Below are positions 1-3,000 of a DNA stretch of 22,672 bases, piece by piece. The position numbers are program-made. The first letter of the stretch is position 1; every line of letters begins with the position of its first letter. The DNA is from Escherichia coli (GTDB lineage Bacteria; Pseudomonadota; Gammaproteobacteria; Enterobacterales; Enterobacteriaceae). Where the stretch lies: NCBI RefSeq assembly GCF_003334815.1, contig NZ_QOWO01000051.1; one strand, given 5' to 3'.

Positions 1-3000
1 ACCATTTGATCATATGACAAGATGTGTATCCACCTTAACTTAATGATTTTTACCAAAATCATTAGGGGATTCATCAGAGCAAAGCTGCTTTTTGAAACAA
101 CTGCCTTAGGCAAATTGAGCGAAGAAGAGTTAGCACAAATAGCATTAACCAGCGAAGAACAACGTGATGCGCGTATTCAGGCGACGCGAGAAGTCTATGG
201 GAAATCGATTCTGTTCGATTACTCCTATAAATTCTTCTATGAGGATGGTTATGGCAAAGAATCACTGATTCTTAACCTTAATCCGCAAGATGATAAAAAA
301 GATGAGCGTCGGTATGAGTATTTTACCGCGTGTTTGCTCAGCTTTTATCAGCAACAATATTTATTCAATAAAAATAAAGAAAAATTAAATGAATTTAATA
401 TCGAAAAACCGCTGTGGGTTTTTGTCGGTAATTCTGTAAGTGGTGAAGATTCAGACATTCACGCAGTATTGCGTTTTTTAGCATGGTTTTTAAACCACGA
501 AACGCAGGCAAAAGCGTGGATTAACGATCTCATTAAAAATAAAGCGCGAATCCTCGATACCAAAGAGCGTAACATTTTTGAAAATCGCTTTACTGCACTA
601 ATGAACGCTCCGGAAGATATCTACGCAGATATTCTTTCTCGCTTGTTTAACACCACTCACTCTGGTCAGCGACTGCGAGTTCTGAATTTAATAGGCAGTA
701 AAGGTGAACTGGCATTACAGGTTGGTGAGGCCGAACCGTTTGGCCTTATCAATATTGGTGATGCACCGTCTCTTTACAAAATGTGTGAAGAGGATACGAC
801 ATTTGATTATCAGAGAGATGATTTTGCAAAGTCGCTCTTTCATACGTTAAATGACAAAGACTCGCGACTACATATTTTGATCGGCTCGCGAAAATTTACT
901 GAAGGCTGGAGCAGTTGGCGCGTCTCAACGATGGGATTGCTCAATATGGGCCGTGGAGAAGGTTCACAGATCATTCAGTTATTTGGCCGTGGCGTTCGCC
1001 TTAAAGGTCGCAATTATTCTTTGAAACGCAGTACACCCGGTGAGCGTCCGAAAGGGTTGCATCTGGAAAAATTAGAGACACTGAATGTATTCGGTGTACG
1101 TGCCGATTACATGGCAACCTTTAAACAATACCTGGAAGATGAAGGGATTACGCCAAGTGACGAGATCCTTGAGCTGAATTTTGAAACTCGGCCAAATATG
1201 CCAGCAACCAGGCTTAAAACACTTAAGCTCAAAGATGGTTATAAAGATAATCAAAGACTCGGCTTTAAACGTGTCTATTTTCCCGAATTGTATGAAGTTC
1301 CTGCTGATTTTCAGGGGAAAATTAAGCAGCCGCATATTAAGCTGGACCTATACCCGAAACTTGAGTCGATTGATACCAGCAGAAAAGGGGAAAATACTCC
1401 GGTTAACGTGCGTAATGAAGCGAAGTTAGATTATAAAATCATTAGTGCGTTTGATTTTGATCGGCTTTATCTCGCCATTCAGAATTATAAACTACAACGC
1501 GGCTGGTCAAATTTACGTGTGGATAAACAACGTTTGATCGACTTTTGTACCGGTAAGACAAAGATCGGAAATAGTTGGTATACCCTTTTGATTCCAGCTT
1601 CAGAACTTGAGATTAAGCAATATGCAGATATTGCTAAGCAGGAAGATATTATGCTTCGTCTGCTGACTGATTATACTGATCGCTTTTACAACACATTGAA
1701 AAATGCTTATGAAGGTCAGTTTTATGAAGTCACACAGGTGAAAGAAGATGATCCTGGTATGATCAAAATGTACCATTTCGAGATCGAAGAAACTGATGAT
1801 GGGTTGGCATATACCAGTCGGCTGGAACAATTACAACAATTGGTCATCGACGGCGAAATCGGTAAAGCAAAATCCTGGAGTGCATCCGGGATGGTTGCTA
1901 TTACCTTTGATAAACATCTCTATTATCCACTTCTTTCGATTGAAAAAAATGCCAACATACCGCTAAAAATGCGACCGGCAGCACTGGGTGCATCAAGTGA
2001 GATTACTTTTGTCCATGATCTTCAGTCTTTTGTTGATTCGACAAAAGGGCAGAAAATTATTGGTGATAAAAGTTTATATCTGCTAAGAAATGCGGATTCT
2101 AAAAATAGAGGCCTGGGCTTTGCTACTGCGGGTAATTTTTATCCGGATTTCTTATTGTGGTTAGTCGATGATAAAAGTGGTAAACAATGGTTAAGTCTTA
2201 TTGATCCAAAAGGCATCCGCAATCTTAATCTTGATGATCCAAAGTTCGGATTATATAAAGAAATCAAGAATCTTGAACATAAATTATCGGATGATAACTT
2301 ATCATTAAGTGCATTTATTGTTTCTGAAACTTGTTATGTTGACTTAGTAAACGTACCTGATTCAAAAGAGAATCTGGAAGCCAGAAATGTGCTTTTTATT
2401 GAGGATACTGGTCCATTGTATCTGGAGAAATTATTCAGTAAGATGGTTAGCGAGTAAATAAATATGATTCTGCTCCATATCTCTGTGAGATATGGAGCAG
2501 ATATTATCGCCAATGTGCAGGAATAATTAAGTCAAACGATTTTGCTGCATATTCAAGCATTTTTATTATTTCCCTGTGTCGTTCCTGGTCGAAAGACTGT
2601 CCATTTTTTCTACACTCTATAATCCCTTGTAATTCTTTTAGGTTAAACATATCAAGAAGATATAAATTTTTCCAGGTTGGTTGCCCGAAGAGGTTATAGA
2701 CTGTTTCCGTAGCATCTCGTTCACTTGCTAATCTTTTCTCTCCTTCTATTCTTTCAAAAAATATTTCAGCTGTTTCTTTATCATCATAAGTATTTAATAA
2801 TTTCATTATGATTTCCCTGATTAATGAATTGATATCACGATAATTATATCATGAATAGATGTAAATTTACTATATATATAAATTAGTGTACAATTCAACA
2901 TACCAATTTTTTTAATTTGTAATGTCGATTGGTTAATAATTGGATTCTCTTATAATGAATATATATTTACTCTGACTAGAATATTTGTAAAAGTATTTTA

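Follow-up and report, generated by a model that had tools for sequence, protein, structure and literature searches.

A small, previously undescribed protein family encoded beside methyltransferase-containing restriction cassettes in gammaproteobacterial genomic islands

The stretch of the Escherichia coli chromosome analysed here (22,672 nucleotides (nt); contig NZ_QOWO01000051.1 of assembly GCF_003334815.1; hereafter the window) is 100% identical to strain LSN03-016011/A and carries on its minus strand a gene for a protein of 100 amino acids (aa), which starts with ATG, occupies positions 2504–2806 and is annotated by RefSeq as WP_000771541.1 in the identical genome. Facing it on the plus strand is the 3' part of a Type III restriction gene (22–2457), which encodes the C-terminal 811 aa of the 1126-aa restriction subunit Res (PADLOC REase_III, E = 0). 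Res is the last member of a three-gene operon that begins upstream of the window and has the order SNF2 (DrmD-like), Type III Mod, Res; the PADLOC match of the DrmD-like SNF2 has E = 4e-199, and those to MTase_III and REase_III are both full length with E = 0, so that the operon holds the Mod methyltransferase (MTase) and the Res helicase-nuclease of a Type III restriction-modification (RM) system. The small open reading frame (ORF) had been proposed in an earlier sequence-only reading of this DNA together with an AGGGA ribosome-binding site and an AT-rich promoter-like region upstream, and all three were found.

The Shine-Dalgarno-like AGGGA (2814–2818, minus strand, as read from the sequence) stands 7 nt before the ATG, and a predicted extended −10 promoter, TGATATAAT (2851–2843, minus strand), lies in AT-rich DNA about 37 nt upstream, though a simple sigma-70 scan was no better than shuffled sequence (8 sites against 5.6 ± 2.2). 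An imperfect palindrome in the sequence, TGATAT-N10-ATATCA (2851–2846 and 2835–2830, minus strand), overlaps the −10 element and is not conserved. A LexA box was also considered in this AT-rich DNA and ruled out, there being no CTG...CAG. When about 70 upstream regions of homologues were compared by eye, most had a −10-like G(G/T)TAnAAT some 30–40 nt before the ATG, and no family-wide operator was seen; the Pseudomonas loci have an upstream motif of their own with a short TGCC..GGCA palindrome, unlike that of E. coli. Pseudomonas homologues with differing flanks have in common the motif TTTTTTTGCCAGTCAGGCAGAATCCACCGCC, about 75 to 30 nt before the ATG and preceded by a GC-rich hairpin (loci L039–L045, L049, L051, L053 and L064), which looks like a promoter/operator module moving along with the gene.

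Between the two convergent stop codons stands a perfect inverted repeat (2469–2501) with 15-nt arms (2469–2483 and 2487–2501) and a 3-nt loop, its first arm beginning 11 nt beyond the end of the large ORF (2457) and its second ending 2 nt short of the small ORF's stop codon (2504–2506). The sequence-only reading had rightly seen the two genes converge tail to tail on a perfect repeat, and its figures (13-bp arms, span 2470–2500, spacings of 4 and 13 nt) are superseded by these. The repeat folds with −25.3 kcal/mol in the minus-strand sequence and −26.5 kcal/mol in that of the plus strand (z = −6.4 and −6.6; none of 200 shuffles was as stable), and a terminator scan, with 3 sites against an expectation of 0.2, flags the hairpin on the minus strand, where the 15-bp stem with its 7 GC pairs is followed by the U-run AUCAUAUUUAUUUA; the U-tract is weaker on the plus strand. 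Among other loci with a gap of at least 20 nt about half hold an unrelated GC-rich hairpin, and those with gaps of 0–15 nt hold none. Because of these unrelated hairpins and short hairpin-less gaps, the hairpin of the window is best read as an ordinary, generic bidirectional intrinsic terminator; termination at the shared hairpin is predicted, but its role as a conserved shared or regulatory element was rejected. With its own extended −10 promoter and this flanking terminator, the 100-aa gene is predicted to be a separately transcribed, self-contained unit, convergent with Res and with no co-transcribed partner in the window.

The encoded protein is predicted to be small, soluble and mildly acidic, with an isoelectric point (pI) of 5.4 in E. 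coli, a family median of 5.9 and a net charge of about −2. The alignment contains an almost invariant strand GEKRLASERD, a segment YNLFGxPxW and a C-terminal IPxHW, and the high-confidence AlphaFold2 (AF2) model (predicted local distance difference test (pLDDT) 96.5, predicted template modelling score (pTM) 0.84) consists of a beta-alpha-beta-beta N-terminal half followed by three helices. No recognisable motif had been seen in the sequence alone, and the searches agree: Pfam, NCBIfam and PADLOC gave no match to the protein, including helix-turn-helix (HTH; HTH_3/HTH_31-like) domains in Pfam and winged HTH (wHTH), WYL and WCX domains in Pfam and PADLOC; the best PHROGs hit had only E = 0.17, the sequence-profile search of the PDB gave nothing significant (E >= 0.16), a Foldseek search of BFVD nothing below E = 0.1, and a structure search with the AlphaFold model matched only its own family. 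Within the open-access literature, no description of the gene was found by accession or by word searches of the census of bacteriophage exclusion (BREX) and DUF499 systems, the Hma study, the RM review and the StySA paper. The family is previously undescribed.

The gene had been labelled an orphan, which proved mistaken, since 260 homologue clusters were found among 5.8 billion proteins, nearly all exactly 100 aa long and 59–69% identical to the query, from Aeromonas, Vibrio, Shewanella, Zobellella, Thalassolituus, Klebsiella, Yersinia, Salmonella, Serratia and Enterobacter. Scanning a single genome for each species gave 69 loci, many of them in Pseudomonas, and the family is confined to Gamma- and a few Betaproteobacteria. 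Conservation therefore reaches well beyond near-identical strains, and the synonymous-site pattern fits coding: the median pairwise ratio of nonsynonymous to synonymous substitution rates (dN/dS) is 0.12 over 196 unsaturated pairs, which shows that the protein itself is selected. The gene is intact across divergent E. coli lineages, and strain 042, in which it bears the locus tag EC042_RS25710, has an arrangement identical to that of the window; on this comparative evidence it is a real protein gene under strong purifying selection. A distant branch comprises homologues at 28–29% identity, and a search for fusions or a wider family seeded from it (P0170) returned only 4 proteins. Two long proteins (P0166 and P0167), matched in many short stretches, look like low-complexity noise and were set aside. 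Contig USKA01000072.1 (L020), from a metagenome-assembled genome (MAG) labelled 'uncultured Streptococcus sp.', carries the E. coli gene in a copy 95% identical, together with Res, and has almost certainly entered that bin as E. coli contamination. Of 368 E. coli genomes that match, 184 become homologous only from about window position 2684 onwards, within the 100-aa ORF; in one such genome that was examined, an IS66 element lies at about 2684, an annotated stub of 55 aa is left and the whole SNF2-Mod-Res cassette is absent.

The genomic context was compiled from loci for which Pfam annotation had been precomputed, from the 69 loci of the species scan, and from plasmid and E. coli records that came with annotation; Pfam and PADLOC served to identify the cassettes. 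The fetched flank holds an MTase homologue in 68 of the 76 non-redundant loci whose flanks were usable, the eight exceptions being contigs cut short, fragments of genes or a BREX locus that extends past the contig end, and none of about 66 intact loci has solely non-MTase defence cargo. In 63 of 75 non-redundant loci the gene and its 3' neighbour converge, mostly across gaps of 0–66 nt, and that neighbour is usually the last gene of the cassette (nuclease or effector). Among 70 full-length genes the adjacent system is a Type III RM system with DrmD-like SNF2 (13 loci), a DUF499/DUF1156 system (Hma, 'BREX-related'; PMC12839542; 13 loci), BREX type 3 (9 loci), BREX type 1 (BrxL/PglZ/PglX; 6 loci), a McrBC-like ATPase with an MTase (3 loci) or one of a remaining class (26 loci), which includes a BREX locus with BrxHI/BrxD, BPTD_3080-type Type III-like systems, Type II RM systems of the XcyI, BglI/SfiI and BglII families, Type IIG systems, and sets of DGQHR plus MTase or UvrD-like plus MTase. 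The 28–29%-identical homologues adjoin, divergently, an operon of an MmeI/Eco57I-type (Type IIG-like) MTase and ResIII. No Type I hsdRMS, cyclic-oligonucleotide-based (CBASS), retron or CRISPR system was recognised as the adjacent system, Type I-specific profiles not having been run on every neighbouring ORF. Thus the gene stands almost always directly beside an MTase-containing restriction-type cassette in gammaproteobacterial genomic islands, and the link to restriction nucleases supposed from the window alone is far stronger than one sequence could reveal.

Several single loci deserve mention. In L052, L058, L061 and L063 large genes beside the MTases and the 100-aa gene (e.g. of 1145, 1020, 1134 and 854 aa) have no PADLOC or NCBIfam match and are candidate undescribed restriction-type systems. 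In a Zobellella locus (L009, 8944–10014) the 100-aa gene begins within an AAA_15/AAA_21 ATPase ORF of the same strand, and in a Pseudomonas locus (L047) an unannotated 380-aa ORF ends 32 nt inside it, also on the same strand; these overlaps could mark a two-gene unit in these lineages. In a Rheinheimera MAG (L033, 10470–12764) two adjoining XerC/D-like tyrosine recombinase genes lie directly 3', in the usual place of the restriction cassette.

The sequence-only reading had supposed that the small protein is a dedicated immunity, antitoxin or regulatory partner of the helicase-nuclease. Co-occurrence with Res is indeed tight in 184 E. coli genomes, and Type III plus SNF2 loci accompany homologues in Thalassolituus, Shewanella, Arsukibacterium and Pseudomonas, but many loci hold other systems. 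Proteins 85–92% identical flank the unrelated systems Type III RM, BREX 1, BREX 3 and DUF499, relatives up to 92% identical being found also beside Type II and McrBC-like systems, and the neighbours fall into 30 families on the 3' side and 46 on the 5' side. In blastn comparisons of such loci the homology extends no farther than the ORF, at times with 75–210 nt of promoter, and the same holds for enterobacterial loci. The divergence of the protein tracks host order and not cargo type: mean identity is 74% for the same order with different cargo and 61% for different orders, whether the cargo is the same or different. The varied neighbours, the ORF-confined homology and an identity that follows host order rule out a subunit, antitoxin or immunity protein that co-evolves with Res; there is moreover no co-transcription and no match to an antitoxin fold or family, and the idea of a dedicated partner now has hardly any credit with us. 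The gene is not tied to any single cassette family, integrase or 5' neighbour.

The convergent arrangement raises the question of an effect in cis, whereby transcription reading through from the small-gene promoter would tune nuclease expression, either by antisense RNA to the 3' end of the restriction gene or by collision of polymerases there, as reverse promoters do in some Type II systems (reviewed in PMC12707154). The prevalence of convergence, the nuclease or effector as the usual neighbour and the many gaps of 0–15 nt, too short for a terminator, are in its favour. However, in the window a terminator hairpin of about −25 kcal/mol parts the two genes, as one does in about half of the larger-gap loci; 12 of the 75 loci are co-directional, an orientation seen in Salmonella, Klebsiella and some Pseudomonas, while in the distant branch the genes diverge; and the selection acts on the protein itself. 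An effect of this kind is considered very improbable.

A more serious alternative is that the gene belongs to the backbone of tRNA-inserting islands with P4-type integrases, where it would serve excision, transfer or regulation and mark the edge of a cargo slot filled mostly with RM-like systems. The order tRNA/tmRNA, integrase, (AlpA), 100-aa gene and convergent cargo recurs in Vibrio, Pantoea, Kosakonia, Colwellia, Psychromonas, Shewanella and E. coli, an integrase remnant is kept on the expected, same side in E. coli D8, and in Aeromonas and Pseudomonas the gene comes after DUF932-YqaJ-Gp3-RadC(-CbeA) modules. The dependence of sequence on host order fits as well, as does the confinement of the family to Gamma- and a few Betaproteobacteria, the neighbouring cassette types being far wider spread (PMC12839542). 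Yet no backbone gene is consistently linked, given the 46 families of 5' neighbours and the lack of DNA homology upstream of the promoter; neither a second conserved flank nor flanking repeats were found around the roughly 300 bp (ORF plus promoter) that are conserved. Islands at leuX with an integrase about 90% identical, whose cargo of a Ser/Thr kinase and HerA (plus McrBC) has no MTase, are without the 100-aa gene, no intact locus carries solely non-MTase defence cargo, and the distant homologues, in a different kind of element, still adjoin an RM operon. We regard the backbone explanation as the strongest competitor, though an unlikely one. In the two islands concerned, L103 (E. coli KOr024) and L105 (CAVP746), the integrase, about 90% identical to that beside the E. 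coli paralogue, is followed by a convergent cluster of Ser/Thr kinase, hypothetical protein and HerA helicase, with McrBC also in L103, and neither an MTase nor the 100-aa gene is annotated in the flanks examined.

It may also be asked whether the gene is an independent small defence or anti-defence gene (a sensor, a decoy, or an anti-restriction protein for new hosts) that accumulates in RM-rich islands without functional coupling. Its autonomous transcription unit, its place in defence islands, in some loci also near Septu, PsyrTA and Type IV HNH genes, and the ArdB-type antirestriction genes on nearby island backbones are compatible with this. Against it, no homologue was found in 50,697 phage records and only 7 matches in 72,556 plasmids, the pI and net charge are not those of a DNA mimic, no effector partner is evident, and co-accumulation leaves both the tight juxtaposition and the MTase-specific neighbourhood unexplained. 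Such independence seems to us improbable, if less so than an effect in cis.

We therefore favour, with moderate confidence, the reading that the gene is a general, host-adapted, trans-acting companion or accessory of methylation-based restriction cassettes with no private nuclease partner. The enzymology of the cassette makes no difference to the protein, which goes only with methylation-based systems and whose sequence diverges along host lines; for these reasons it would probably act in trans, where cassette and host cell meet, on a feature shared by all restriction that depends on methylation; it is probably no subunit, antitoxin or operator-bound repressor of one system. The mildly acidic character (median pI 5.9), the lack of a family-wide operator and an ambiguous linked-dimer prediction (two copies joined by a 30-residue Gly/Ser linker gave an AF2 pTM of 0.60 and domain pLDDT of about 91) incline us to protein-protein rather than DNA binding. 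The most likely single mechanism, tentative and by itself rather improbable, is a restriction-alleviation or establishment factor, which would hold self-restriction in check while the host's own chromosome is not yet fully methylated, after the entry of a cassette or its renewed expression. The same need is met by other means in Type II systems with their C proteins and in Type I systems, for which ClpXP-dependent alleviation is established (reviewed in PMC12707154), and with the latter the apparent lack of Type I neighbours agrees.

A number of observations weigh against the companion reading. Most E. coli RM and BREX loci are without the gene, and an intact copy is found in only about 200 of 5426 E. 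coli genomes, so that no cassette type requires it. Some of the association could come from a preference for certain cargo in a family of islands with P4-type integrases, RM-like systems being abundant in the E. coli leuX hotspot itself (PMC12707154); about 20 loci have a P4-type integrase upstream on the same strand. The MTase counts were obtained with references drawn from the loci themselves and not from Pfam, and the loci are phylogenetically related, so that counts exceed the number of independent events; the co-directional and divergent orientations count here too. Finally, the mechanism is inferred from comparative data.

The window lies at the leuX/nanS variable region discussed in PMC12707154, bounded by a CP4-like island of leuX type (DUF932, an ArdB-type antirestriction gene, RadC and YeeU/CbtA) on one side and by nanS-nanM-nanC-fim on the other. 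Upstream of the 100-aa gene and co-directional with it is a pseudogene remnant of an SBD-HNH 'phosphorothioated DNA-binding restriction endonuclease' (3117–3538, minus strand), the gene for which is intact in E. coli strain MLI121; similar HNH_2/ScoMcrA-like genes occur near homologues in Klebsiella and Salmonella. The interval between the 100-aa ORF and nanS holds this pseudogene (minus strand) and an HNH fragment (plus strand), at 3117–3756 and 3764–4771. An Rfam search of 2300–3800 gave no match, and direct or inverted repeats flanking the block of SNF2-Mod-Res and ORF, as a sign of a mobile cassette, were found only as chance-level matches. Farther on, nanS is annotated as partial, its C-terminus missing, both in the window and in E. 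coli 042, and fimB is shortened to a 161-aa ORF (8104–8589, plus strand), annotated by RefSeq as a pseudogene with an internal stop in the identical genome; fimE is intact, and the type 1 fimbrial switch could be biased.

A small companion protein that accompanies BREX, Type III and DUF499/Hma-type systems alike and, as far as seen, neither Type I nor non-methylating defences would be a clonable handle on how naive hosts survive the arrival of these systems and on how the systems are regulated. The gene could also mark unannotated restriction cassettes, and even if it were only a backbone gene it would remain a precise marker of the cargo junction in a widespread defence-island family.

Among known systems, the genes that flank defence hotspots of integrative elements, such as P4-like satellites and E. 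coli leuX 'hotspot 37', resemble the 100-aa gene as conserved genes next to an exchangeable slot for defence cargo. Here, however, only about 300 bp are conserved without a second flank, the cargo is limited to MTase-containing systems, and sister islands that carry other cargo do not have the gene. The anti-restriction proteins ArdA, Ocr, ArdB/KlcA, lambda Ral and Rac Lar are likewise small proteins of mobile elements that modulate restriction whatever the sequence specificity, and ArdB-type genes are present in the same islands. The 100-aa protein differs from them in lacking sequence or fold similarity, and in being neither strongly acidic, like the DNA mimics Ocr and ArdA, nor typically phage- or plasmid-encoded; its gene stands beside a restriction system and not in a leading or early region. 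Antitoxins of the Phd/YefM type are of similar size, and the secondary-structure elements of YefM, beta-alpha-beta-beta-alpha, appear to follow a similar order; the bicistronic operon and the single specific toxin or nuclease family of a toxin-antitoxin pair are absent here.

A closer parallel in distribution is given by the BrxR/CapW WYL regulators, a single family whose members, each transcribed as a unit of its own, accompany many different and unrelated defence systems on mobile islands. BrxR is a protein of about 300 aa with a wHTH-WYL-WCX architecture encoded at the promoter end, whereas the 100-aa protein has no WYL or HTH domain, is encoded at the 3' end and is confined to MTase-containing systems. 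The C proteins of Type II systems (C.PvuII, C.AhdI) are alike in being products of small genes (about 80–100 aa) tightly linked to restriction cassettes, and in the proposed role, by which restriction is kept from outrunning methylation. They are HTH dimers that bind C-boxes and are encoded upstream of the nuclease gene and co-transcribed with it. The 100-aa protein, in contrast, has no HTH, Pfam or fold match and is found with many system types beyond Type II; its gene mostly faces the cassette from the 3' side, tail to tail, rather than standing upstream and being co-transcribed, and as to an operator there are a palindrome over the −10 element in E. coli and a different one in Pseudomonas, none having been seen family-wide. 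In summary, this is a real small-protein family with an unusually strict neighbourhood. It is conceivable, though on balance doubtful, that it represents a new class of control protein with a novel fold, through which Type II and Type III RM, BREX and DUF499-type cassettes would be acquired and kept safely, self-restriction being restrained by way of a conserved host factor or the shared methylation step; the family would then do for systems without C proteins what C proteins and ClpXP-dependent alleviation do elsewhere.

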